From contig JBATLS010000674.1 of assembly GCA_049289435.1 (NCBI GenBank), positions 1-32,344 on the forward strand: a DNA stretch of 32,344 nucleotides, written 5' to 3'. Shown piece after piece: positions 10,927 through 31,853 of this stretch. Position numbers and translations under genes: made by a program. Origin of the DNA: Saprospiraceae bacterium (GTDB lineage: Bacteria > Bacteroidota > Bacteroidia > Chitinophagales > Saprospiraceae). Below the pieces are notes generated by a model. The model searched no databases. It saw only the letters and a program-made list of their open reading frames with translations, and was not told where the DNA came from. Each line of letters opens with the position of its first letter. Position 1 is the first letter of the stretch.

Positions 10927-11499
10927 TTATTTGCTGATTAATAAGAATATAAAAAGATAAACCCATAGAAAATCTACAAAATGCCAGTAGTTGACTACGA
11001 GGTCAAACCTGTTTTTGCGAACTTCGGAGATCTTATATTTTAGTGTAAATGCATGTAGCAAAGCCACGATAATGGCCGCAATACCACCTAAAACATGCAA
11101 TGCGTGTATCCCTGACAAAAGATAGAAAAATGATCCTGAGACATTACCCTTCAGATCAACACCCATCTCATACAACTGATTCCATCCGACATACTGCAAT
11201 ACCACAAAGGTCATGCCTAATGCGAAAGTCAACAATAAGTATTGTTTGTACAGGTTTTCCCTCCCGGTCACATAAGATTTGAATGACATATGGAGAGATA
11301 TACTGGAACATAAAATGACTACCGTACTAAAATAAAAAGCAGCTGGAAATGAAAATTCAAGCCAGTTGCCAGCAGATTGTTTTACTATGTATGCGCTGGT
11401 GAATGCGCCAAACATCATGGTGATGCTTGCCATAGCTGCCCACAATGCAAATTTGTGTGGGTGTATTTTATTTCTTTTATTTTCTAATATCTTGTCCAT
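10927..11499 (-). CDS. cytochrome c oxidase subunit III family protein (short paralog)
   Basis: 190 aa with 5 TM segments. Motifs FFYLLSGIHALHVLGG and NYWHFVDFLWVYLF. Confidence 0.85.
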   Translation of the reverse strand: MDKILENKRNKIHPHKFALWAAMASITMMFGAFTSAYIVKQSAGNWLEFSFPAAFYFSTVVILCSSISLHMSFKSYVTGRENLYKQYLLLTFALGMTFVVLQYVGWNQLYEMGVDLKGNVSGSFFYLLSGIHALHVLGGIAAIIVALLHAFTLKYKISEVRKNRFDLVVNYWHFVDFLWVYLFIFLLISK

Positions 11500-11509
11500 C
11501 TAATATTTT

Positions 11510-12412
11510 TTATAATAACCAGTATGCTAATAAAACAAATGGCAAGTAGAAAAATGAATAAAACATTAGTTTCATGGCTGCTGCCCTGTCAAACTTTTTA
11601 TGAAAATGAAAACTTAGTCCCATGTAACCAAAAGTTAAGAGAAGCACTATTGCTGTACTCCACAATGAAACATCTAATCTTATGGCCATAAAAGCGATTA
11701 ATGGAAGTATCAAAAAAGCATAAAACAAAGAAGACATCCCCAAATTTCTGTCAATTTTCCCCAATCTTTCAGGCAATAATTTAAACCCAGCTTTCTGATA
11801 ATCTTCATATCCCAAAAATCCAATAGACCAAAAGTGAGGAAATTGCCATAAAAATTGAATGATAAACAGACAGACTGCCATCAATGAAAGACGTCCATCA
11901 AATGCTGTAGCACCTATCAACACCGGTAATGCTCCAGGTATTGCTCCCACAGCTACAGCTATCGTACTATATCTTTTTAATGGCGTATAAACAAAGGCGT
12001 ACAAAATCAATGAAAGCATACCAATCAACGCTGTCAAAGGATTGAAGGTAGCCAAAATACTGATTCCTATCAAGCACATAATGCCACCAAACAATACGCC
12101 ATCCGATGTCTTCAACCTACCTGTGGCTATAGGACGATTGGCAGTTCGTGTCATCATGATGTCAAAATCCTTTTCCAGTACCTGATTGAATGTATTGGCA
12201 GCACCTGTGACCAATAATCCTCCTGCTATCAAACGAAATACATCAAACAAACTGATGAATGCACCAGCAGCTATCACATATCCCAGGACAGATGACATGA
12301 CCACTACCAGACTAAGTTTTAGTTTTACCAACATCACATAGTCCAGCAAGACTGCACCGAAACTCCCTCTTTCAGTATATGTCGAAACGTATGTTTTATT
12401 ATTATTATTCAA
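11510..12412 (-). CDS. cyoE: protoheme IX farnesyltransferase (heme O synthase)
   Basis: 300 aa multi-TM UbiA-family protein. Motifs GAANTFNQVLEKDFDIMMTRTANRPIATG and YTPLKR. It sits between cox subunit I and III. Confidence 0.9.
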   Translation of the reverse strand: MNNNNKTYVSTYTERGSFGAVLLDYVMLVKLKLSLVVVMSSVLGYVIAAGAFISLFDVFRLIAGGLLVTGAANTFNQVLEKDFDIMMTRTANRPIATGRLKTSDGVLFGGIMCLIGISILATFNPLTALIGMLSLILYAFVYTPLKRYSTIAVAVGAIPGALPVLIGATAFDGRLSLMAVCLFIIQFLWQFPHFWSIGFLGYEDYQKAGFKLLPERLGKIDRNLGMSSLFYAFLILPLIAFMAIRLDVSLWSTAIVLLLTFGYMGLSFHFHKKFDRAAAMKLMFYSFFYLPFVLLAYWLL

Positions 12413-14300: not shown

Positions 14301-15818
14301 TTATTTAGAAATAATTCTAAGTTCGGTTCTTCTGTTTTTTTGTCTTCCAAGTGGAGTATCATTGGTGTCCAGTGGCTGATCCTGACCATAGCCTTTTGCT
14401 AATAAACGGTCTGCTGCCACTCCTTTTGCTACTAGATATTCCTTTACTTTGTTAGCTCGTTCGTTTGATAGGTTTAGATTGGAGTCTGCATCACCTACAT
14501 TGTCGGTATGACCAGCCAACTCCACTCTCAGCTTAGGAAATCTGCCCATCAGTGTAACAAGGTTATCCAATTCATGTTTAGACATATCACTATTTAATCC
14601 TGATGCCCCGGTCACATAAAAGACGTGCTCCAAATTGATCACATTGCTCATGGTCCCTGTGGTATCATCGACAAACCTGGCCACTGCCGACCTTAATTCA
14701 AATCCTCTCGCTTTGATCTCATAGTCAAACAATTTTTTGCCTGCCCATGGATCGCTATCAGTATTCCTTATATTGGTAGCATAAAAAGGCTTTTGGCCAG
14801 CCAGCCAGGTATTAAATTCTTCTCTACTGACTACTTCAACAATACGTCTCATAGAGTAATGTCCTTTGCCACACAACTCAGCACATGCCAGTTCATATTC
14901 AAATGTTTCCCATTTTTTAGGTCCGTCAGGATCTGCTGGATCTGCTGGTACTTGCCACTCCGGATAGGTGCTCAACTGCTCTCTGAACTCTTGTGTAGTT
15001 TTTACAGGAGTGAATATAAAAGAAGTAGGCAATCCAGGCACTGCATCCATTTTAACCCGAAAATGCGGTAGATAAAAATTGTGCAATACATCCTTAGCCG
15101 TTATTCTCACCTTGATGGTCGAATCTTTAGGAAGTACTATTTTATCAGAACCTCCCAATAAGATATCATCCACAGAAGCTTCATCTTTCCAGTCGATACC
15201 CAGGGAGTTGGTGGCAAGATCTATGAGTCTGAAATCTTTATTACCGAGTTTGCCATCAGCACCCGGGTATCTGATATCCCACGCAAACTGATAACCCGTT
15301 GCTTCTATTTCTATGTATTTATCTTCTGATGTCAGTGTAGGAAATATACTATTCCACGTAATCAAACCATCAGCCACCAAAAAGGTCATAACGACAGCCG
15401 GTACACCCGTCCATATCCATTCCAATTTCGTATCATGTGCAAAAAACAATGCTTTTCGCCCACCTATGTTTCGATATTTGTATGCATACCAAAAAAGTAA
15501 AATATGAGTAATCACAAATACAATACCTGTTACTATCAGTGTTACATTAAATATTCTATCCAATTCAAAACCATGCGCTGATGCACTGGAAAGTGGTCCA
15601 TAACCAAGCATAGAATTTTTATAATGCCATGCCGACCAAATACAACCGACTAAGAATACGACCATAAAAACAACCAAAGCTTTTCCTTGAGTATTGTTAT
15701 TGGCTCTCTCCACAGTCTCTTCTCCTCTGATTCTGGCTGCCAACTCAGAAAGTTTACCTATCTGAACCACCACTACTGCCAGTAAAAAGATGATTCCTAA
15801 AGCAACAAAATATATCAT
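14301..15818 (-). CDS. coxB: cytochrome c oxidase subunit II fused to a C-terminal OmpA-like peptidoglycan-binding domain
   Basis: 505 aa with N-terminal TM helices. The CuA site is intact (DVLHNFYLPHF ... CAELCGKGHYSM). There is no CXXCH anywhere. Roughly the last 110 aa carry OmpA_C/MotB signatures: ELAGHTDNVGDADSNLNLSNERANKVKEYLVAKGV...GYGQDQPL...NRRTELRI. Confidence 0.9.
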   Translation of the reverse strand: MIYFVALGIIFLLAVVVVQIGKLSELAARIRGEETVERANNNTQGKALVVFMVVFLVGCIWSAWHYKNSMLGYGPLSSASAHGFELDRIFNVTLIVTGIVFVITHILLFWYAYKYRNIGGRKALFFAHDTKLEWIWTGVPAVVMTFLVADGLITWNSIFPTLTSEDKYIEIEATGYQFAWDIRYPGADGKLGNKDFRLIDLATNSLGIDWKDEASVDDILLGGSDKIVLPKDSTIKVRITAKDVLHNFYLPHFRVKMDAVPGLPTSFIFTPVKTTQEFREQLSTYPEWQVPADPADPDGPKKWETFEYELACAELCGKGHYSMRRIVEVVSREEFNTWLAGQKPFYATNIRNTDSDPWAGKKLFDYEIKARGFELRSAVARFVDDTTGTMSNVINLEHVFYVTGASGLNSDMSKHELDNLVTLMGRFPKLRVELAGHTDNVGDADSNLNLSNERANKVKEYLVAKGVAADRLLAKGYGQDQPLDTNDTPLGRQKNRRTELRIISK

Positions 15819-23397: not shown

Positions 23398-24801
23398 TTA
23401 ATAGTGGCATTTTTGACATTCCAAACCACCTATATCGGCCACGGTGACTTTGTCTCTTTTGCCTGCAGCCATCTCCTCATGGTATTGAGTATAGTTTGCA
23501 TAATATGCATTTTCTTTAAACTTGACTTCGGTCTGTCTGTGGCAATTGACACACCAACCCATAGAAAGAGGAGACATTTGTTTCATCACTTCCATACCTT
23601 CTACTTTGCCGTGGCATGTCTGACACTCCAGTTTACCTACAGTCACGTGTTGCGAATGGTTAAAGTAAACGTGATCCGGCAGGTTGTGGATTCTGACCCA
23701 CTCTATCGGACCCGGGATTTGTTTTTTGAGGTCATTGGTCAGTGATTTTTTGATATCTGCCCATTGTTCTGCGACGATTCTTTCGCCTTCATTGTTAAGA
23801 TCTGCTTTTTCTTTGACCCTTTTATATTCATCACCGATCCATTTAGTGTAGATGGCTTTTATTTCATCTTCTGTTTTGGTAGTATAATTTTCTATATATT
23901 TATTTGCAGTAGGATCGTAACCGATGGATGCATATATCTTGGTGATTTCGCCTGTACCGTATTTGCTTCCGTTTTTGACTGCTGCATGGCAATTCATACA
24001 GGTATTTGTGCTTGGGATACTCGAATGCTTAGATTTTCGGGCACTATCATGGCAATACTGACAATCAATCTTGTGTACACCCGCATGAGTTTCGTGCGAA
24101 AATTTGATCGGTTGGTCAGGCGCATATCCTTCCTGACGACCTAATTCAGTGGCTTTATTTACGGTAGTATAAGCTCCGAGCACGATGGCTGCAAAGATTG
24201 CGAAGGTGACCACCCCTTTGGATGTAAGTATCTGAGTGATGGTTTTGGGCCCTACTTTATCGCCTTCTTTGGCTGCTGCTATTTGATTGAGATTCGAAAT
24301 GATTTTAGTCAAGAGCAAAGCTAAAATGGCCAATACACCCAATATAATCAAATACATAGGCAGAGGCGACTTGGGTGCTACTTTTGTTTCTGTGGCAGCC
24401 GCCGTAGCTTTTGTTGCACCATAGGTGCCATCATATACACCATTGATATAAAGCAACATACTACCGATCTCATCATCAGTCAATTTCGCGAAAGCAGTCA
24501 TAACCGTAGGCTTATATTGGTTCCATAGCTCAACAGCTCTTGGATGCCCAGCCTGTACCAAAGCCTGAGAGTTTCTGATCCAAGCATAAAGTGCTTCGTC
24601 ATCAGCCCATCTCTCTTGTGCACCTCCAACTGCTGGGCCTGTAGCCGCACTCCTCATATCTTTACTATGGCAAGCTGCACAATAATTTTTGAATAGCTCT
24701 TTGCCAGCATCGGCAGTAGATTGAGCAGAGATATCTATATATAACAAAGTCAATAAAACAAACGCTATTGACTTGATAGTTAGATGCTTGTAAATCATCA
24801 T
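23398..24801 (-). CDS. actA: alternative complex III subunit ActA, hexaheme form (N-terminal monoheme c domain + TM + pentaheme domain)
   Basis: Track ORF 23398-24900, trimmed to ATGATG at 24801 (MMIYKHLTIKSIAFVLLTLLYIDISAQ signal). Six CXXCH motifs: CAACH, CQYCH, CMNCH, CQTCH, CVNCH, CQKCH. A TM helix (LPMYLIILGVLAILALLL) separates the first heme domain from the rest. Confidence 0.85.
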   Translation of the reverse strand: MMIYKHLTIKSIAFVLLTLLYIDISAQSTADAGKELFKNYCAACHSKDMRSAATGPAVGGAQERWADDEALYAWIRNSQALVQAGHPRAVELWNQYKPTVMTAFAKLTDDEIGSMLLYINGVYDGTYGATKATAAATETKVAPKSPLPMYLIILGVLAILALLLTKIISNLNQIAAAKEGDKVGPKTITQILTSKGVVTFAIFAAIVLGAYTTVNKATELGRQEGYAPDQPIKFSHETHAGVHKIDCQYCHDSARKSKHSSIPSTNTCMNCHAAVKNGSKYGTGEITKIYASIGYDPTANKYIENYTTKTEDEIKAIYTKWIGDEYKRVKEKADLNNEGERIVAEQWADIKKSLTNDLKKQIPGPIEWVRIHNLPDHVYFNHSQHVTVGKLECQTCHGKVEGMEVMKQMSPLSMGWCVNCHRQTEVKFKENAYYANYTQYHEEMAAGKRDKVTVADIGGLECQKCHY

Positions 24802-24993: not shown

Positions 24994-25716
24994 TTACACT
25001 CTTTCTCCCAATATCCAGGAGGCTTTATACTTCACTTTATAGTTTTTGTTGATATATTCGGATATATGATCTGTAGCTTCTTTGATGTCGTCAGTAAATT
25101 TTATCAAGTGGATGTCGTTGGGAGATATGGTTTTTTCGACGATCATCTTGTCTATCATCTCTTTGATATCTTGAAAATAAGAAGTACCCATGATGACAAT
25201 GGGAAAATGGTGTAATATTCCGGTTTGTATCAATGTCACAGTCTCAAATAGTTCGTCCAAGGTACCAAAGCCACCCGGCATGACTACAAATCCGTAGGAA
25301 TACTTTGTGAGTAACACTTTACGGACAAAAAAATAATCAAAATCCACTACTTTGGTCATATATGGGTTGGAAGATTGTTCCTTGGGCAGTTTGATAGTAC
25401 ACCCTATGGATTGTCCACCGTTTTCGAAAGCTCCTCTATTGGCAGCCTCCATAATGCCTGGCCCACCACCTGTCATCACTGCAAATCCCAACTCAGACAA
25501 TTGATTGCCTAAAGACCTGGCCGTTTTATATTCCTGATGATCCTCACTAAATCTGGCTGACCCAAAAACTGTAATACATGGCCCTGTAAAATGGAGTTTT
25601 CTAAATCCGTTGATAAATTGAAAAAATACTTTTACTACAAATAGCAACTCTCTGCCTCGGCTATTTGGCCCGGAGAGAAATTGAGAATCTGCATGAATGA
25701 GTCGTTTGGTTGACAT
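24994..25716 (-). CDS. LOG family protein (TIGR00730-type, cytokinin riboside 5'-monophosphate phosphoribohydrolase-like)
   Basis: 240 aa. Motifs VFGSARF, VMTGGGPGIMEAANRGA and the family hallmark PGGFGTLDELFE. Confidence 0.85.
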   Translation of the reverse strand: MSTKRLIHADSQFLSGPNSRGRELLFVVKVFFQFINGFRKLHFTGPCITVFGSARFSEDHQEYKTARSLGNQLSELGFAVMTGGGPGIMEAANRGAFENGGQSIGCTIKLPKEQSSNPYMTKVVDFDYFFVRKVLLTKYSYGFVVMPGGFGTLDELFETVTLIQTGILHHFPIVIMGTSYFQDIKEMIDKMIVEKTISPNDIHLIKFTDDIKEATDHISEYINKNYKVKYKASWILGERV

Positions 25717-25768: not shown

Positions 25769-26881
25769 TTAACTCTCACTCCCCAGCGATTTCTCACTAA
25801 GTATCAAAAGTGACGCATGACTATGCAAAGCGGCGTACTCCGTAACGCTCTTGTGAAACAAATTTTGGAATAAATTCCGATGTTTTGTGGACAAAACTAC
25901 CAAACGTTGATGATCTGTATCGGTAACTACGTCTTTTATGGATGAAAAAAGATCCGATGTCTCTACCACATCAATATTATATCGCACCATTGGATAATAA
26001 CTCTCTAATAGCTTTTTAGTATCCATGATGTCATATGGACCATCTTGGTTGGCTTTAAAATGAATAATTCTCAGATCAGTGGACATTTTCATACATAGTC
26101 TCCCTGCGTATAATAGATGTAGTGAATCGTTTTTCAAATCCTCGGAGAGATATACTATTTCTTTATTTTGACTATACGCCGCTCCTGGTGGAATCAAAAA
26201 CAATGGACAATGGCATTGATCCAACATATCAAGCGATAATGATCCAAATAATTTTTTGAACGCATCTCCTTCACCAGTGGTACCCATCACCATGACAGAA
26301 CCAGGTTGCTTAGACATTTCAATGAGTTCAATCCTGGGAAAACCAACTCTAAAGACCCCTTCTATCATAGGTTCTTTGATAAAATTGCCAATCCAGTCGT
26401 TATTGAGAGACTCCACATACTCACCCAATTTCTTTTCGTGAATCTTTTCGGCTTCATCATTGATGATAGAAAATTGGTTGGCTTCTGTGGAGGTAGGGTA
26501 ATATACATGCGTCAGGAGAATCACACCTTTGAGATCTTTGGCCAAATAATTTGCAAAATTATAGGCATTGAAAGATGTCCCTGAAAAATCTGTTGGAACG
26601 ATTATTTTTGTCATTTTGCCAAAATTTCCCACCTTCAAGATATTTTGAACTGTCGATCTCAGCGTTTTGTTATAGCTGCCATTTTGCTTTATCTCAAACA
26701 ACAAATTTCCATTTACTTTGATCGCAGGCACAGACATGATATCATCCTTGATAATATCCGTCACCTTAGTGACTTCTTTCAATTGGTAATCAATGCCCGC
26801 ATCGGTCAAATGACGTACAATTCTGGATTTGGCGAGCTGATATGTGGGTGTCCCAGTGCCATATATTTTGATATCCATCAT
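25769..26881 (-). CDS. Cys-less thioredoxin-like (MTH895/redox_disulf_2-like) domain fused to tandem universal stress protein (USP) domains
   Basis: 370 aa. The N-terminus MMDIKIYGTGTPTYQLAK...VPAIKVNGNL matches my memory of the KIxIYGTGCxxC...PxLxVdG family, but both Cys are replaced by Thr and Tyr. Two USP-like modules follow: KIIVPTDFSGTS...VMVMGTTGEGDAFKKLFGS and KEIVYLSEDL...LVVLSTKHRNLFQNLFHKS. Confidence 0.75.
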   Translation of the reverse strand: MMDIKIYGTGTPTYQLAKSRIVRHLTDAGIDYQLKEVTKVTDIIKDDIMSVPAIKVNGNLLFEIKQNGSYNKTLRSTVQNILKVGNFGKMTKIIVPTDFSGTSFNAYNFANYLAKDLKGVILLTHVYYPTSTEANQFSIINDEAEKIHEKKLGEYVESLNNDWIGNFIKEPMIEGVFRVGFPRIELIEMSKQPGSVMVMGTTGEGDAFKKLFGSLSLDMLDQCHCPLFLIPPGAAYSQNKEIVYLSEDLKNDSLHLLYAGRLCMKMSTDLRIIHFKANQDGPYDIMDTKKLLESYYPMVRYNIDVVETSDLFSSIKDVVTDTDHQRLVVLSTKHRNLFQNLFHKSVTEYAALHSHASLLILSEKSLGSES

Positions 26882-27109
26882 ACATATATTATTTAAATGG
26901 TTATAGTAATTTTAGTATTAATAAATTCATAAATATGTATGTAATTGACTATTAAAATGATATTCTATAAACGTGTTGCCTGCATTACAAATATTAGAAT
27001 CCATCATGAAATATTTTGAATACCTAAACTTTATGTACTTATAAATAAATCAATATACTTACGCTTCTGTTGGATCATTCCATAGGAAACAAACATTTTT
27101 CTGATCGTA

Positions 27110-27553
27110 TCATAGTTCATAATCTGCTACTGCACCTGAATCAATGGCAAGTCTATTTATGATGTCAAAAGTAGTAAGTATGCCTACGATCTTTTCATTT
27201 TCAACAATAGGTATGGCATGAAAAAGATTTTCTTTAAATACTTCCAAAGCCACATTAATCCTGTCTCCAGGATTTAGTTTTGCCAATTTTTTCGTCATAA
27301 TGTCTTTGGCCAAAAAATTGTTTAATCTCACTTCATCAGCCAGTTTTTCGACTTCTTCATCTGAGAAACCTCGCCTAAAAAACAAGAAATCTGATTTGCT
27401 GAGCATACCCACCAACTTACCATCTTCAATCACTGGTATGTGGTGAATTTTGTGCCCCTTAAATATTTTATTTGCTACCGCCAATGTTTCAGTAGCACCG
27501 ATGCAAATAGGGTTGGGAGACATGATAGTGGAGACAGGGTTAAGAATATTCAT
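27110..27553 (-). CDS. CBS-pair-only protein
   Basis: Track ORF 27110-27586, trimmed to the ATG at 27553 (MNILNPVSTIMSPNPICI). It has two CBS motifs (HHIPVIEDGKLVGMLSKSD and HAIPIVENEKIVGILTTFD) and no other domain. Confidence 0.8.
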   Translation of the reverse strand: MNILNPVSTIMSPNPICIGATETLAVANKIFKGHKIHHIPVIEDGKLVGMLSKSDFLFFRRGFSDEEVEKLADEVRLNNFLAKDIMTKKLAKLNPGDRINVALEVFKENLFHAIPIVENEKIVGILTTFDIINRLAIDSGAVADYEL

Positions 27554-27591
27554 ATGCTTGAGATTTAATTGTGCCCCAAAGATCAACTAAT

Positions 27592-27620
27592 TATTTTTGG
27601 AAAAATATGACATAAGTCAT
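27592..27620 (+). promoter_or_regulatory. candidate -7 box (TATTTTTG) followed by a 5-4-5 palindrome ATGAC-ATAA-GTCAT in the divergent CBS / kinase intergenic region
   Basis: Read directly: TATTTTTG at 27592-27599 on the plus strand and ATGACATAAGTCAT at 27607-27620. The 5-N4-5 geometry matches Crp/Fnr-family operators, but the sequence is not the TTGAT-N4-ATCAA consensus. Confidence 0.2.
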
Positions 27621-27713
27621 TCCTTTACATGATATTTGTGATGCGTAAGTCCTGATATAATCATGACATTGTGCTATAATTCTGATTTTCGATACAAAAA
27701 TAAGCATATAAGG

Positions 27714-28997
27714 ATGCATAGTCAAAGTGATGTAGAGAGACGATTGAAGGCCATTTTTGATGCTGCGGTGGATGGCATCATTACTATCAATCAAAGGGGC
27801 ATCATCGAAGAAGTCAATCTTGCATCCTGTAGATTGTTTGGCTATACACCCGAAGAGATGATGGGTAAAAATGTAAGCTTCCTCATGCCTATCGAACACA
27901 GCATCCACCATGACAAATATCTGGAAAGGTATCATAAAACAAGACAAGCAAAGATCATCGGAATAGGTCGGGAGGTCGTAGGTAAGAAAAAAAATGGGGA
28001 AGAATTTCCTTTTTGGTTGGCGGTGATCGAAGTAAAGCTGGATCAAAGCACGATCTATACAGGATTTATTCATGACTTGTCAGAGATCAAAAACGCTGAA
28101 GATAGATTAAAGTCTCTCAATGAAGATCTGGAAAAAAAAGTCATGGACAGAACTTATGAATTGGAAAATGCTGTCAATCAACTGCTGGCACTTAACCGGC
28201 AGTTTGAAGATGAAATTGCCCTAAAAATAAAAGTACAAAACGATCTTAAGGAACGTGAAGCAGAGCTGGAGAAAAGCCTGGTAAAAGAAAAGGAACTGGG
28301 AGAACTAAAGTCAAGATTTGTATCTATGGCCTCACATGAATTCAGGACACCTTTAGCTACTATACTCTCTTCTGTGTCACTCATAGGAAGGTACAAAGAA
28401 ACAGATCAGCAGGCTAATAGGGACAAACACATACACAAAATAAAATCGTCCGTGTCACATCTCACTGGAATCCTCAATGATTTCCTATCTATGAATAAGC
28501 TGGAAGAAGGCAAAATAATGACAACCATAGGAGAGTTTGACGCCAAGGAAATAGGATTGGAAGTGGTGGAAGAATTTAAGACCATTTTAAAAGGACAACA
28601 ACAGATTATATTTGACCATATTGGGCAATCTGAAATGGTATCGTCAGATAGAAAAATATTGAAAAACATACTCATCAATCTGTTATCCAATGCCATCAAA
28701 TACACGGCTGAATCGGGGATCATACATGTCAATATGTGGAGTAACAAAGATACTATCAGATTTTCTATAGCTGACAATGGTATTGGCATACCCGAGGATG
28801 AACAAAAGCACTTGTTTGATAGATTTTTCAGGGCTAGTAATGCTACCAATATCGAAGGCACAGGCTTGGGCTTGAACATAGTAAAAAAATATGCAGAAAT
28901 GTTGGATGGACAAATAACCTTCCAAAGTAAACTGTATGAGGGCAGTACCTTTACAGTGGAACTTCCAAACAAAATTGCGGACTTAACTCAACATTAA
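27714..28997 (+). CDS. soluble FixL-type heme-PAS sensor histidine kinase
   Basis: The track ORF starts at 27663. I prefer the ATG at 27714 (MHSQSDVERRLKAIF) because the preceding 17 codons look intergenic. The PAS domain matches my memory of the rhizobial FixL heme domain: GKNVSFLMPIEHSIHHDKYLERYHKTRQAKIIGIGREVVGKKKNGEEFPFWLAVIEV...IYTGFIHDLSE. A coiled coil follows, then HisKA (SMASHEFRTPL) and HATPase_c (NAIKYT, DNGIGIP, GTGLGL). No TM segments. Confidence 0.85.
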   Translation: MHSQSDVERRLKAIFDAAVDGIITINQRGIIEEVNLASCRLFGYTPEEMMGKNVSFLMPIEHSIHHDKYLERYHKTRQAKIIGIGREVVGKKKNGEEFPFWLAVIEVKLDQSTIYTGFIHDLSEIKNAEDRLKSLNEDLEKKVMDRTYELENAVNQLLALNRQFEDEIALKIKVQNDLKEREAELEKSLVKEKELGELKSRFVSMASHEFRTPLATILSSVSLIGRYKETDQQANRDKHIHKIKSSVSHLTGILNDFLSMNKLEEGKIMTTIGEFDAKEIGLEVVEEFKTILKGQQQIIFDHIGQSEMVSSDRKILKNILINLLSNAIKYTAESGIIHVNMWSNKDTIRFSIADNGIGIPEDEQKHLFDRFFRASNATNIEGTGLGLNIVKKYAEMLDGQITFQSKLYEGSTFTVELPNKIADLTQH

Positions 28998-29008
28998 ATA
29001 TCATAAAA

Positions 29009-30064
29009 ATGACCACAATGAAATCAAAAATCCTGGTGATCGAAGACAATAACGATGTAAGAGAAAACATAGAGGAACTCTTACAACTGACCGGATACGA
29101 AGTATTTACGGCTGAAAACGGAAAACTAGGAACTACAAAAGCACTCGAAGTGATACCCGACCTCATCCTATGTGATATCATGATGCCCGAGTTGGATGGA
29201 TTCGGAGTACTGCGTATCCTCTCCAATCACCCTACTACGATGGATATTCCTTTTATTTTTCTGACTGCAAAGATAGAAAAGGAAGATTTCAGAAAAGGTA
29301 TGGGCTTAGGAGCAGATGATTATATCACCAAGCCTTATGACGATATCCAATTACTAGATACTATAGAAATCCGAATCAAAAAAAGTGCTAGAATAAAAAA
29401 TTCTTTTGATCGATCAGGCTCTGGACTTCAGCGATTTATAGATGAGGCAAAGGCTCAAAGGGAATTTGATAAATTATCAGAAAATCGGGAGATCAGAAAA
29501 TATCATAAAAAAGACATCATCTATGAAATTGGACAATACCCTAAATGGCTGTACTTCGTGGCATCCGGGAGTGTAAAATCCTTTCAGATCAACGATTTCG
29601 GCAAGGAGTTTACTACCAACATATATGCTCCGGGTGATTTTTTTGGATATATGCCTCTATTGGTTGGTGAAAAATATCATGACTCTGTCTCCGTCATAGA
29701 TGATTGTGAACTAAGATTGATCCCTATAGATGACTTCACCCTGCTGCTCTTCAATAATAGAGAGTTTTCAGCCAAGTTTATCAAAATGCTGGCAAATCAA
29801 TCAGAAGAAGTAGAAAAACAACTCATTGAAATGGCGTATAGTTCCGTCAGAAAAAGAGTAGCAAATGCACTACTGAAATTTAGTGAAACAAAACACTCCA
29901 CAACGATGTCGATCCTCAGAGATGACATAGCCAGTCTAGCGGGTACAGCTAAGGAAACGACCATCAGAACACTCTCAGACTTCAAAAGCGAAGGTCTGAT
30001 CGGTATCGATGATAATAAAATAGAGCTCCTAAAAATCGAAAAACTTAAAAACATGCCGCAATAA
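29009..30064 (+). CDS. hybrid response regulator: REC receiver domain fused to a Crp/Fnr-type effector + HTH domain
   Basis: 351 aa. REC features: KILVIEDNNDVRE, phospho-acceptor Asp in DLILCDIMMPELDG, FLTAK, DDYITKP. Next is a cNMP-binding-like beta-roll (WLYFVASGSVKSF...GDFFGYMPLL) and then a Crp-type HTH (RDDIASLAGTAKETTIRTLSDFKSEGLI). It starts 11 nt after the kinase stop. Confidence 0.85.
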   Translation: MTTMKSKILVIEDNNDVRENIEELLQLTGYEVFTAENGKLGTTKALEVIPDLILCDIMMPELDGFGVLRILSNHPTTMDIPFIFLTAKIEKEDFRKGMGLGADDYITKPYDDIQLLDTIEIRIKKSARIKNSFDRSGSGLQRFIDEAKAQREFDKLSENREIRKYHKKDIIYEIGQYPKWLYFVASGSVKSFQINDFGKEFTTNIYAPGDFFGYMPLLVGEKYHDSVSVIDDCELRLIPIDDFTLLLFNNREFSAKFIKMLANQSEEVEKQLIEMAYSSVRKRVANALLKFSETKHSTTMSILRDDIASLAGTAKETTIRTLSDFKSEGLIGIDDNKIELLKIEKLKNMPQ

Positions 30065-30147
30065 TGACTTAAATCATACTATAATAGAATGGTGGTCATA
30101 TGCTTTGGATGCAATCTGTCCTATATTTGTATCGAAAACAAGAGACC

Positions 30148-30555
30148 ATGAGACCAGAGCTCAACGATAAGATAAGCGAGATCATGACGGTACAGCCAAT
30201 GACTGTTCAGGTGCATGAGCCGTTACAAAAGGTGTATGAACTCATGAATAAATTGTGTATCAGACATATACCAGTAGAGGAAGATACGGTGCTCAAAGGT
30301 ATGATAAGTAAGAGTGATTTGGACAAATGGCAGTATCTGTATAGCACAAATAGTAATCTCTCTACTCCACTGACAGCGAAAGAAGTAATGACAAAATCTC
30401 TGCACACCATTCAACATGATGATACCATCAAAGATGCGGCAGAAATGCTCAGTTTGGCGTCATTTCATGCATTGCCTGTGATGCAGGATGAAAAATTGGC
30501 AGGTATCGTCACGAGTACCGATTTGATCATTTACCTTCTCAAAGATCATAAATGA
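30148..30555 (+). CDS. CBS-pair-only protein (second copy)
   Basis: Track ORF 30100-30555, trimmed to the ATG at 30148 (MRPELNDKISEIMTVQPMTV). Two CBS motifs (RHIPVEEDTVLKGMISKSD and HALPVMQDEKLAGIVTSTD). Confidence 0.8.
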   Translation: MRPELNDKISEIMTVQPMTVQVHEPLQKVYELMNKLCIRHIPVEEDTVLKGMISKSDLDKWQYLYSTNSNLSTPLTAKEVMTKSLHTIQHDDTIKDAAEMLSLASFHALPVMQDEKLAGIVTSTDLIIYLLKDHK

Positions 30556-30631
30556 GCATGAGTTGGGCATAAATTTGACATAATAAAATGTTTTAGAAGT
30601 ATAGATTGTTGATCTAATTGTTTTGATTTGT

Positions 30632-30667
30632 AAGAGGCGGCACAAAAGGTGAAGCCTCTTATTTTTT
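30632..30667 (+). terminator. rho-independent terminator after the kinase / regulator / CBS unit
   Basis: AAGAGGC (30632-30638) pairs with GCCTCTT (30654-30660). Inner CAC/GTG pairing is possible. ATTTTTTG follows directly. Confidence 0.55.
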
Positions 30668-30701
30668 GCCAATTACCCTATGAATAACAAAGAATAACGT
30701 A

Positions 30702-31736
30702 TTACAAAATCTTTAATCTATCCATCAATTGATCAATAAGTTCTTTTCCTTCCTTTGAAAATTTCTTAAAATCACCCTTGGAATACGCCTGGAGACCCAA
30801 CATAAAATTGTCCGCCATGATCTCATCAGGATGGATGATATATTGAGTATTGTCTTTGATCTTACTAAAAAACATGGGGGTGCTCTTCAGTGGGATCGTG
30901 GTCTGTCCATTTGACGTAGTGGATGCTTCCAGATATTCACCCTTATCGACTAATTCATATAAATCAAAATTTAGATAATCAAAAAAGGCATTTGTTGATG
31001 ATCTATAACCATCATATTTACTTGTGATCAAAGGTACAGCTTGTATGGTGCCTCCATCTTTGGGTAGTTCCATGACATATTGGTAAGATACTCCATCGGG
31101 GTTGGTCAGCAGCCTTCTACTTAAGTGATCATTGAGGCGGACGGGTTTAGGAGACTTACTAAAACCAATCAAACGATATAAATCTTTTCGCAATGTCTCA
31201 TCATATCTCGACAATACATGAAAAACTTCATGAATCATCACAGGGATTTGACGAGCTGGATCATCTATTGGAAATATGTTTTCTGGGATCAGAATATCAC
31301 GCTCTCTGGTATAATACACATGATCTCCCAGGGGGTCGGTTTTTATTTTGATCAATCTCATACCTGCAGGAAATAATCTTGGACTCAAGGTATCACAAAG
31401 TGCTTTTACAACATTGAAGATTTCAGTGAGCTGTAGCCTTTCATCCTGCTTCCAAGGGGATACTTGCGTAGAAAGAAATGATTTATATTGATTTAATACT
31501 TGACTTCTGTCTTCATTTTTAAAATATTTTTTCATCTGTATGCCCATTTCGACGACGGAGACTTGGTCAAAAAAGCCATCTTTAGTATCAGTAATTATGG
31601 CTTTGGCAGCTGCAGTGCTGTCAACAAAGGTAACTATAGCTGGCTTAAGGTATGGATCCTTAGCCGTCTTATTGGATTTACATGATATAAATAGAAGCAC
31701 AATTATCGAAAAATATGAAATCTCTCTTGCCAGCAT
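30702..31736 (-). CDS. hypothetical lipoprotein with HExxH motif (putative zinc metallohydrolase)
   Basis: Track ORF 30702-31775, trimmed to the ATG at 31736 (MLAREISYFSIIVLLFISC lipobox). It has a single HEVFH motif in IPVMIHEVFHVLSRY and a downstream acidic HPDEIMADNF. I do not recognise the family. Confidence 0.55.
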   Translation of the reverse strand: MLAREISYFSIIVLLFISCKSNKTAKDPYLKPAIVTFVDSTAAAKAIITDTKDGFFDQVSVVEMGIQMKKYFKNEDRSQVLNQYKSFLSTQVSPWKQDERLQLTEIFNVVKALCDTLSPRLFPAGMRLIKIKTDPLGDHVYYTRERDILIPENIFPIDDPARQIPVMIHEVFHVLSRYDETLRKDLYRLIGFSKSPKPVRLNDHLSRRLLTNPDGVSYQYVMELPKDGGTIQAVPLITSKYDGYRSSTNAFFDYLNFDLYELVDKGEYLEASTTSNGQTTIPLKSTPMFFSKIKDNTQYIIHPDEIMADNFMLGLQAYSKGDFKKFSKEGKELIDQLMDRLKIL

Positions 31737-31853
31737 AAATAGTATGTTTGGCCAAAAGTAATAAATTTTTTGCAACTATATGGATCTATCAAATAGGTAA
31801 CATCACATCGATATCTATTATTTTTATACCTTTGTGGGCTCAAAAGTACATTC

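Follow-up and report, generated by a model that had tools for sequence, protein, structure and literature searches.

A candidate low-oxygen switch in Bacteroidota that pairs a FixL-like heme-PAS kinase with a receiver-Crp hybrid regulator

The locus described here lies in a 32-kb stretch of DNA from a Saprospiraceae bacterium (32,344 nucleotides; GCA_049289435.1, contig JBATLS010000674.1), which we refer to as the window, and all functional claims made about it are computational. Toward one end of the window are five adjacent genes that the initial annotation had grouped as a putative hypoxia-response island. Two are on the minus strand: a gene for a 370-residue protein with thioredoxin-like (Trx-like) and universal stress protein (USP) domains (25769..26881; Pfam Thioredoxin_3 and Usp) and, upstream of it, CBS1, which encodes a stand-alone CBS-pair protein of 147 residues (27110..27553; two CBS domains, E 5e-28). 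The other three run divergently on the plus strand. They encode a FixL-type heme-PAS histidine kinase of 427 residues (27714..28997; PAS, HisKA, and HATPase_c), a REC-Crp hybrid response regulator of 348 residues (29018..30064, with a start at 29009 also listed; Response_reg, cNMP_binding, and HTH_Crp_2), and CBS2, a second stand-alone CBS-pair protein of 135 residues (30148..30555; two CBS domains, E 1.7e-24) that is 33% identical to CBS1. We consider it probable that the kinase and regulator form a two-component low-oxygen switch whose local targets are the two CBS-pair genes, with the USP gene downstream of CBS1.

An open reading frame (ORF) check of the window recovered all five genes where the initial annotation had placed them, and Pfam bore out the domains it had assigned, apart from a second USP domain that was weak. 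The start codons chosen at 27553, 27714, and 30148 agree with gene calls in relatives at 90% identity, and the predicted leaders of 19 and 14 nt described below support them. In relatives, the regulator is also called as a 348-residue protein. The island is closed by an intrinsic terminator on the plus strand (30630..30668; hairpin at 30630-30662 plus a U-run), located between CBS2 and a convergent gene for a hypothetical 357-residue protein. Folding confirmed the annotated hairpin as real (-17.4 kcal/mol, z -3.28), and a terminator scan had missed it because its unextended 13-nt loop exceeds the 8-nt limit of the scan. A sigma-70 promoter scan of the window was uninformative, as expected for Bacteroidota.

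The PAS domain of the kinase (approximately residues 8-135) aligns ungapped over 128 residues to the heme domain of Bradyrhizobium japonicum FixL (1dp6/8js5; E 1.6e-24) with 38.8% identity, and positions 121-253 of the NCBIfam FixL model match residues 24-156 of a longer 444-residue ORF. The equivalent of the proximal heme ligand (His200 in FixL) is His66, which sits in HHDKY in the window and RHDSY in FixL. In the distal pocket, Arg72 and Arg86 (the latter within an IIGIGR motif) correspond to Arg206 and Arg220, on which O2 discrimination by FixL depends, and Ile81/82 correspond to Ile215/216 of the distal pocket and FG loop. The catalytic core is intact, with HisKA and HATPase_c domains, an H-box His208, and N, G1, and G2 boxes. 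Pfam gives only PAS, HisKA, and HATPase_c, and no N-terminal hydrophobic segment was seen by eye; the kinase therefore looks soluble. Its score against the NCBIfam FixL equivalog model is 163 bits, below the cut-off of 850, which implies that it is no orthologue of FixL. In FixL-type kinases the deoxygenated form is the active one, and the residues above suggest that this kinase works like FixL without being its orthologue, with predicted binding of heme b and inhibition by O2.

Across 65 homologous kinases from related loci, the proximal His column is conserved in 64. The position equivalent to FixL residue 220 is more variable, with Arg in 36 of the 65 kinases and Met in 18. In Escherichia coli DosP, whose ligand switching differs from that of FixL, Met serves as the distal heme ligand. 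Hence, the kinase family paired with the same regulator seems to span FixL-like and DosP-like distal pockets.

The regulator begins with a receiver domain (Response_reg, E 3e-25) containing Asp10, Asp53, Thr83, and Lys105, all of which are invariant in 13 diverse family members that are 59-84% identical to the window protein. Its C-terminal two-thirds is a Crp/FNR module (cNMP_binding, E 8e-17; HTH_Crp_2, E 6e-13), giving an overall layout of REC, helical linker, cNMP-like beta-barrel, C-helix, and winged helix-turn-helix (wHTH). When aligned to CRP, the residues that bind cyclic AMP (cAMP) are replaced: Glu72 by Tyr and Arg82/Ser83 by Tyr/His. The alignment to FNR starts at FNR residue 36, past the N-terminal Fe-S cysteines, and the REC domain occupies that place. 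Given a receiver in the position of the FNR cluster and a disabled cAMP pocket, phosphorylation rather than a ligand would be expected to license DNA binding. If true, this represents a third gating mode for the Crp/FNR scaffold, in which a fused phospho-receiver stands in for a small ligand or Fe-S cluster. The recognition helix KETTIR (312-317) retains the Glu and Arg of VETISR in FNR and RETVGR in CRP, and both residues are invariant in the regulator family.

Structural comparison was consistent with this domain assignment. The best Foldseek matches of the regulator were all CRP/FNR proteins (E 5e-18 to 1e-13), and neither sequence search nor Foldseek fold search found a PDB chain covering REC and Crp together. 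An AlphaFold2 (AF2) model confirmed the domain folds and the long helical linker, with a predicted local distance difference test (pLDDT) of 76 and a predicted template modelling score (pTM) of 0.42. The family is large, comprising 1,647 representatives of 50%-identity clusters at E ≤ 1e-30. Nearly all of the best 150 representatives are about 345 residues long and align end to end. Source annotation of the family is generic, either 'response regulator' or 'CRP-like cAMP-binding protein', and the lineage of the window is Saprospiraceae.

We next turn to the conservation of the locus. When one genome per species was scanned, relatives of the regulator turned up in at least 584 genomes, from which the best 80 loci (L001-L080) were analysed; five further relatives of the window (L081-L085) were also compared. 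The best 80 loci are all from Bacteroidota and cover at least four orders, with members from Saprospiraceae, Lewinellaceae, Dyadobacter, Emticicia, Pontibacter, Adhaeribacter, Chitinophagaceae, Cyclobacteriaceae, Crocinitomicaceae, and Flavobacteriaceae. In about 65 of the 80 loci, the gene immediately preceding the regulator encodes a heme-PAS kinase; several of the others are truncated contigs. This pairing is seen in Saprospiraceae, Cytophagales, Chitinophagaceae, and Flavobacteriales. USP genes occur near the regulator in 44 of the 80 loci and CBS genes in 21, almost all of the latter in Saprospiraceae. The order USP plus Trx, CBS, kinase, regulator recurs in L002, L005, L007, L013, and L022, and the order USP, CBS, kinase, regulator recurs in L011 and L074 without a detected Trx part. 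Clustering of these genes is not due to chance, as the pair is adjacent in about 65 of 80 loci and the four-gene order is repeated in Saprospiraceae.

Among these further relatives, those at 90% identity keep the entire order of LOG, USP, CBS, kinase, regulator, and CBS, with an amino-acid permease in place of the respiratory operon that follows the LOG gene in the window. At 76% identity the LOG gene is absent and an HSP20 gene occupies the CBS2 slot. CBS2 is conserved in L081-L083, and L084 and L085 instead have an HSP20 gene preceded by the operator described below. Because the other gene adjacencies fade with distance, the conserved core is the kinase-regulator pair, and placement of USP-CBS beside the regulator is a Saprospiraceae-level association. 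Synteny across Bacteroidota, which the initial annotation had proposed as a test, thus holds for the pair, with the full set confined to Saprospiraceae. Its reading of the pair as a FixL-type heme-PAS kinase with a REC-Crp partner is upheld by the conserved heme-pocket residues and phylum-wide synteny.

Four loci from Pontibacter, Adhaeribacter, and relatives (L042, L054, L059, and L066) have extra components in the region from about -3.7 kb to the start of the REC-Crp gene. Their order is heme-PAS kinase (~514 residues), single-domain receiver (~150 residues), second histidine kinase (~410 residues), and REC-Crp regulator. This layout suggests a four-component relay or branch point instead of a simple pair.

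To locate shared operators, we applied an unbiased palindrome search covering all 4- and 5-mers with spacers of 0-10 nt, comparing sequence upstream of kinase, CBS, and USP genes with the rest of each locus. The top three palindromes were TGAT-N4-ATCA (z 13.5), ATGA-N6-TCAT, and TGAC-N4-GTCA, all of which are facets of aTGAy-N4-rTCAt. The operator is therefore FNR/FixK-like, TGAY-N4-RTCA, and is enriched 6-7 fold versus about 2 fold for generic AT-rich palindromes. A search for the pattern TGAY-N6-RTCA gave matches only in coding regions, near chance level. Exact TGAY-N4-RTCA boxes numbered 328 in 1.33 Mb, and 236 of them fall in the ~9% of sequence that is intergenic. Pairs of boxes are spaced by exactly 22 bp (37 pairs) or, less often, 23 bp (7 pairs), and no other distance up to 120 bp accounts for more than 2 pairs. 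This strict 22-bp pairing implies a double-site operator with both boxes on the same face of the helix.

An exact box was found upstream of 44 of 67 kinase genes, 23 of 34 CBS genes, and 21 of 64 USP genes. The kinase-regulator unit has an exact box in front of it in 55 of 77 loci, against about 7 expected by chance. Where the locus has no kinase, the exact box is directly upstream of the regulator gene. Eight such loci from Saprospiraceae and Lewinellaceae (L001, L006, L008-L010, L012, L014, and L061) have USP-CBS directly beside the regulator with no kinase between, and tandem boxes before the regulator gene.

These observations bear on who binds the boxes. It is conceivable, although we think it unlikely, that the kinase and regulator are a genuine pair while the boxes are bound by a separate stand-alone Crp/FNR protein and the REC-Crp regulator has other targets. 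The box does resemble the generic FNR/FixK consensus, which is TTGAT-N4-ATCAA. Bacteroidota encode several Crp/FNR paralogues, such as MalR-like proteins (PMC8510549), and all loci were chosen via the regulator, hence there is no negative set for assigning the box. Against this stand the position of the boxes before the regulator's own operon, or directly before the regulator in the kinase-less loci, and the invariance in the REC-Crp family of the recognition-helix Glu and Arg that read TGA in FNR. Moreover, none of the 80 loci has a detected stand-alone Crp paralogue within 8 kb of the regulator. The operator, its spacing, and its promoter phasing have statistical support, and the low-oxygen switch would act through binding of the boxes by this regulator.

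The genes carrying boxes indicate what such a switch would control. Box-bearing neighbours in the 80 loci include CcoNO (a COX1 and FixO fusion of the cbb3 oxidase), a FixI/CcoI-type copper ATPase, FixS/CcoS, a HemN-like radical SAM enzyme, HemA, DoxX, TerB, small thioredoxin-like proteins, and two unannotated small families. In 24 loci a ccoNO gene is found no more than 10 kb from the regulator, and 15 of these genes have an exact box. Exact boxes precede fixI in 14 of 24 cases versus 91 of 884 other genes, and are also found upstream of ccoS (5 of 6) and hemN (3 of 10). In two Saprospiraceae loci (L005 and L026), the USP-CBS-kinase-regulator order of the window is followed by box-preceded hemN/fixI genes, joined in L026 by ccoS and ccoNO, likewise preceded by a box. 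From its gene content, the predicted regulon is the classic FixK/FNR low-oxygen set together with a stasis set of USP, CBS, and HSP20. The initial annotation had proposed that the CBS and USP genes belong to a low-oxygen or stasis regulon, and an FNR-like operator common to CBS, USP, cbb3 oxidase, maturation genes, and hemN in relatives fits that proposal.

HSP20 (alpha-crystallin) genes with a box were observed at 11168-11611 on the plus strand in L084 and L085, where they sit in the exact CBS2 slot, and at L027:14456-14899 and L037:8130-8558. Stand-alone Thioredoxin_3 proteins of about 104 residues are box-controlled in five other loci (e.g., L003:7835-8149). The two small families consist of proteins of ~137 residues (16 loci; e.g., L038:8233-8646 on the minus strand) and ~126 residues (7 loci; e.g., L027:8134-8514 on the minus strand), both found behind promoters with the full architecture defined below. 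Neither family had a Pfam or NCBIfam match, and we regard both as candidate new members of the low-oxygen regulon.

Independent support for the regulon content comes from Flavobacterium psychrophilum, in which O2 limitation strongly induces the cbb3 operon and hemN (cluster C52) along with other heme-biosynthesis genes (PMC9723704). No regulator was assigned to this hypoxic induction of cbb3 and hemN (PMC9723704). In the C52 cluster, ATGATaattATCAT occurs some 40 bp before the mapped transcription start site (TSS) of gene THC0290_0456. This is a single data point and is suggestive of a box in F. psychrophilum.

The same gene set speaks to the signal that is sensed. A kinase responding to nitric oxide, carbon monoxide, or redox state, with the regulon acting as a nitrosative or redox stress response, strikes us as improbable. 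Several diatomic gases can trigger heme-PAS domains, Met220 as in E. coli DosP is present in about a quarter of the family kinases, and thioredoxin-like and DoxX genes are among the box targets. However, the window kinase retains the equivalents of the O2-discrimination residues Arg206 and Arg220, and the recurrent targets are the classic O2-limitation set of cbb3, fixI, ccoS, and the O2-independent HemN. O2 limitation also induces these genes in a flavobacterium, F. psychrophilum (PMC9723704), and the box targets seen included no nor, hmp, or nir gene. We therefore retain O2 as the signal of the proposed switch.

The boxes are also positioned precisely relative to promoters. TSSs mapped across the F. 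psychrophilum genome show TAnnTTTG, the Bacteroidota -7 element, to span -12 to -5 (PMC9723704). Distances from box centre to TAnnTTTG across the loci peak at 29 bp (27 cases, or 41 at 28-30 bp) and at 51-52 bp (49 cases), over a background of 0-3 per bin that is mostly 0 or 1. Boxes at 29.5 and 51.5 bp from an element spanning -12 to -5 have centres at -41.5 and -63.5. The former is the canonical position for Class II activation by CRP and FNR, which argues for an activator.

Requiring the strict architecture left 64 promoters, of which 50 drive named target families, 12 drive other genes, and 2 have no assigned gene. The named targets are ccoNO (9), fixI (7), USP (6), the kinase (5), the ~137-residue family (5), the regulator (4), CBS (4), DoxX (4), hemN (2), ccoS (2), thioredoxin-like (1), and the ~126-residue family (1). 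Ten of the 12 other genes were scanned, and these include a USP, two HSP20s, a fatty-acid desaturase, a pyridoxamine-phosphate oxidase (PNPOx), and an AI-2E transporter.

Promoter phasing makes it quite unlikely that the regulator is instead a repressor released at low O2. Some Crp/FNR proteins do repress, tandem boxes between divergent genes make occlusion possible, and the proximal box would cover the -33 element. Yet the proximal box is phased at -41.5 in dozens of promoters and does not overlap the -12 to -5 element. Fixed upstream phasing of this kind is a signature of Class II activation, whereas repressor sites have no such phasing. Deoxy-active FixL-type kinases also fit with hypoxic induction of cbb3. 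Activation at low O2 is thus the direction we carry forward for the switch.

Applying the operator to the window, the best two matches to its position weight matrix (PWM) are at 27605-27622 (score 16.8) and 30062-30079 (15.8). The only two promoters with the full architecture on either strand face CBS1 and CBS2, and in both the centre of the proximal box is exactly 29.5 bp from the -7 element, equal to the modal distance in the family. At CBS1, the -7 element GATCTTTG (27577..27584, minus strand) matches TAnnTTTG at 7 of 8 positions, with a predicted TSS at ~27572 and a leader of ~19 nt. Its predicted proximal operator at -41.5 is box 1, TGACATAAGTCA (27608..27619), which is a perfect palindrome and the only exact ATGAC-N4-GTCAT in the window. 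Box 2, TGATATTTGTGA (27630..27641), is 22 bp from box 1, has one core mismatch, and is the predicted distal operator at -63.5. Box 2 could also be the proximal site of a weak rightward promoter for the kinase, for which the candidate -7 element TGACATTG (27664-27671, plus strand) matches only 4 of 6 specified positions.

At CBS2, box 3, TGACTTAAATCA (30065..30076), lies directly after the stop codon of the regulator, has an exact core, and is the predicted distal operator at -63.5. Box 4, GAATGGTGGTCA (30087..30098), is the predicted proximal site at -41.5, located 22 bp from box 3 with its right half-site intact and two mismatches in its left half. The -7 element TATATTTG (30122..30129, plus strand) is a perfect TAnnTTTG with a predicted TSS at ~30134, giving a 14-nt leader. 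The box positions are conserved in relatives: L081 has a 22-bp pair before CBS2, and L084 has a box before HSP20. On this evidence, CBS1 is a predicted direct target of the regulator and CBS2 has its own predicted regulator-dependent promoter.

The USP gene probably depends on CBS1. PWM and architecture scans of the window found no box-type promoter of the USP gene's own, a terminator scan found no terminator-like site on the minus strand between CBS1 and USP, and the CBS-USP gap in relatives is only 34-90 bp. Given the short gap in relatives and lack of an intervening terminator-like site, USP is probably co-transcribed with CBS1 by read-through.

In the USP protein, Pfam places Thioredoxin_3 at residues 2-62 and Usp at 91-231 (E 3.7e-14). 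The initial annotation had called it a tandem USP, of which the first domain stands and the second is weaker: the C-terminal 139 residues form a degenerate USP-like region whose partial match, obtained at a relaxed Pfam threshold, covers no more than the final third of the Usp model (E 0.026), and self-comparison gave no similarity between the C-terminus and the first USP domain. The Trx-like domain has GTGTPTY and no Cys (N-terminus, 26800-26881) at the site where a CxxC motif normally sits in the Trx-like family.

Beyond the USP gene, Pfam and NCBIfam identified a LOG/TIGR00730 gene (24994-25716, minus strand) and then ActA-F, encoding alternative complex III (ACIII), together with a COX2/COX1/CtaB/COX3 oxidase cluster. 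The LOG gene, possibly encoding a nucleotide or cytokinin-riboside 5'-monophosphate phosphoribohydrolase, is 52 bp downstream of USP on the same strand, with a weak terminator-like hairpin (25743-25726) in between, and it recurs there in relatives at 90% identity. We rejected the LOG gene as a member of the module, as it has no box upstream and its linkage is lost at 76% identity; it occurs near the regulator in 2 of 80 loci, and only its link in the closest relatives remains of its inclusion in the initial annotation. The ACIII/aa3 operon was also rejected as a member. It does adjoin the island as reported, but a PWM scan of the window found no box upstream of it, ActA is near the regulator in 1 of 80 loci, and the adjacency is incidental because it is already lost at 90% identity.

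The third-best PWM match in the window, AAATGATTTTAGTCAAGA (24297-24314, score 14.9), is the one strong box close to the respiratory operon. It falls inside ActA, roughly 500 nt into the coding sequence, lacks a partner box and a -7 element, and is probably due to chance.

Least likely of all is that only the kinase and regulator are linked and the CBS, USP, and LOG genes are unrelated neighbours: CBS is near the regulator in only 21 of 80 loci, LOG in 2 of 80, and the window USP has no box of its own, yet the only full-architecture promoters in the window drive both CBS genes, exact boxes precede 23 of 34 CBS and 21 of 64 USP genes in relatives, and USP-CBS remains beside the regulator even in kinase-less loci. 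For LOG and the ACIII operon the objection does hold.

Taken as a mechanism, the low-oxygen switch would work as follows. The soluble kinase would bind heme in its FixL-type PAS pocket, and O2 on the heme would keep it off. Loss of O2 would lead to autophosphorylation at His208, with the direction of the switch taken from FixL. The phosphoryl group would pass to Asp53 of the adjacent regulator, as suggested by gene adjacency and intact catalytic residues, and phosphorylation of the fused REC domain would then license DNA binding by the Crp/FNR module. Two dimers would bind two TGAY-N4-RTCA boxes 22 bp apart at -41.5 and -63.5, resulting in Class II activation of sigma-A promoters. In the window, the switch would drive CBS1 (and USP) leftward and CBS2 rightward. 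In relatives, the same promoters would drive ccoNO, fixI, ccoS, hemN, hemA, USP, CBS, HSP20, O2-dependent enzymes, and the kinase-regulator operon.

Several points weigh against this interpretation. Heme binding, O2 dependence, phosphotransfer, and DNA binding are all predictions, made from observed heme-pocket residues, pairing, operator, spacing, phasing, and regulon content. The box is assigned to the regulator by co-localisation in 80 loci that were selected for carrying it, and the PWM core was fixed by the search pattern, making PWM scores partly circular. Met rather than Arg at position 220 in 18 of 65 kinases implies that the signal may differ among family members. Eight Saprospiraceae loci have the regulator without an adjacent kinase, so its cognate kinase is either elsewhere in the genome or lost. 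The window itself has no cbb3, fixI, or hemN gene, so that the respiratory arm is known from relatives alone. The kinase gene in the window has no canonical -7 element oriented toward it, which leaves autoregulation there uncertain, and control of USP relies on assumed read-through across 228 bp from CBS1. Finally, the inter-domain geometry of the AF2 model is unreliable at a pTM of 0.42, and its REC-Crp packing is unusable.

A broader claim can be made with less assurance. We lean slightly toward the regulator family being the master low-oxygen regulator of aerobic Bacteroidota (Saprospiria, Chitinophagia, Cytophagia, and Flavobacteriia), operating as a one-step switch in which a dimer of dimers on a 22-bp double operator controls cbb3, heme supply, and USP/CBS/HSP20. 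It would then be the first characterised Crp/FNR protein gated by a phosphorylated REC domain. Aerobic Bacteroidota are abundant in oceans, soils, and wastewater, and are encountered in fish disease. The locus yields a testable candidate consisting of a sensor, a regulator, an operator with strict spacing, a promoter architecture, and a predicted regulon. Cultured carriers include Dyadobacter koreensis DSM 19938, D. sediminis, Emticicia agri, Pontibacter cellulosilyticus, Adhaeribacter terrigena, Phaeodactylibacter xiamenensis KD52, and Flavilitoribacter nigricans.

The nearest known system is FixL-FixJ-FixK of Bradyrhizobium and Sinorhizobium. The two share a homologous heme-PAS sensor with the same proximal His and distal Arg residues, a Crp/FNR-family end-point acting on a TTGAT-N4-ATCAA-type box at the Class II position, and a regulon of ccoNO (= fixNO), fixI, fixS/ccoS, and hemN with autoregulation, although here the regulon is seen in relatives only. 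In contrast, the system described here has neither FixJ (REC plus a LuxR/GerE-type HTH) nor a separate fixK, and no FixJ-type regulator was found within 8 kb of the regulator in any of the 80 loci. Because the receiver is fused to the Crp module, two transcriptional tiers become one phosphotransfer step. It further differs in using a fixed 22-bp tandem of two boxes, Bacteroidota sigma-A promoters (-7 TAnnTTTG), and an outer half-site base that is A or unconstrained rather than T. The system is not a strict member of the FixLJ family, as it fails on both the partner and the equivalog score. If the proposed mechanism is true, the logic of FixL-FixJ-FixK can be compressed into one step.

Rewiring of FixL signalling has a precedent in the hFixL-FxkR-FixK system of Rhizobium etli and R. 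leguminosarum, where the OmpR-type FxkR replaces FixJ (see PMC7888657). A separate FixK is still needed there, whereas this tier would be removed in the system here. With FNR, CRP, FixK2, and the Porphyromonas gingivalis structure 2gau, the regulator shares the beta-barrel, C-helix, and wHTH fold, the recognition-helix Glu and Arg, the 5-N4-5 operator geometry, and activation from -41.5. It differs from FNR and CRP in its input, which would be a phospho-receiver in place of an N-terminal [4Fe-4S] cluster or cAMP, respectively.

Similarity to mycobacterial DosS/DosT-DosR is of another kind. Both pass from a heme kinase to a response regulator and have a regulon with USP, CBS-pair, and HSP20 proteins, the DosR counterparts being Rv2623 (USP), Rv2626c/Hrp1 (CBS pair), and HspX (alpha-crystallin/HSP20). 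Unlike DosS/DosT-DosR, heme here would be held in a PAS rather than a GAF domain, the output is Crp-type rather than LuxR/NarL-type, the operators are unrelated, and respiratory cbb3 genes are core targets. Judged from these sequence features, the resemblance is one of convergent regulon content and not of system homology. The likeness drawn by the initial annotation holds in that sense and is reinforced by the box-bearing HSP20 genes. The CBS/USP/HSP20 parallel with mycobacterial dormancy suggests a widely convergent toolkit for hypoxic stasis, CBS-pair members included.

As the initial annotation had supposed, we found no O2-sensing system of this type described for Bacteroidota in the literature covered. 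No prior description of the architecture or its function was found in open-access papers and bioRxiv, although an older response-regulator classification may list the domain combination, and the same sources gave no published account of O2 sensing in aerobic Bacteroidota. RgzAB of Flavobacterium johnsoniae was considered as prior art and rejected, because its RgzA component is a hybrid kinase of GAF-HK-REC-Hpt layout with a link to iron. In a wastewater meta-regulon study, Crp/FNR homologues from Saprospiraceae and Flavobacteriales were classed as carbon sensors (PMC8510549).

Three other genes in the window merit brief mention. The COX2 gene (14301-15818, minus strand) encodes COX2_TM and COX2 domains followed by a C-terminal OmpA-family domain (residues 406-496, E 3e-19), which from its domain content is an unusual fusion of a respiratory subunit with a peptidoglycan-binding-type module. 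The 357-residue protein convergent with CBS2 (30702-31775, minus strand) has a lipoprotein-like N-terminus (…LLFISCKSN) and an HEVFH motif of the HExxH type. It has no Pfam or NCBIfam match and no box upstream, and may be an unclassified metallopeptidase. A homologue of 345 residues adjoins the island in the 90%-identical L081. At the far end of the window is an EngA/Der-like GTPase, which was identified by eye from its translation.

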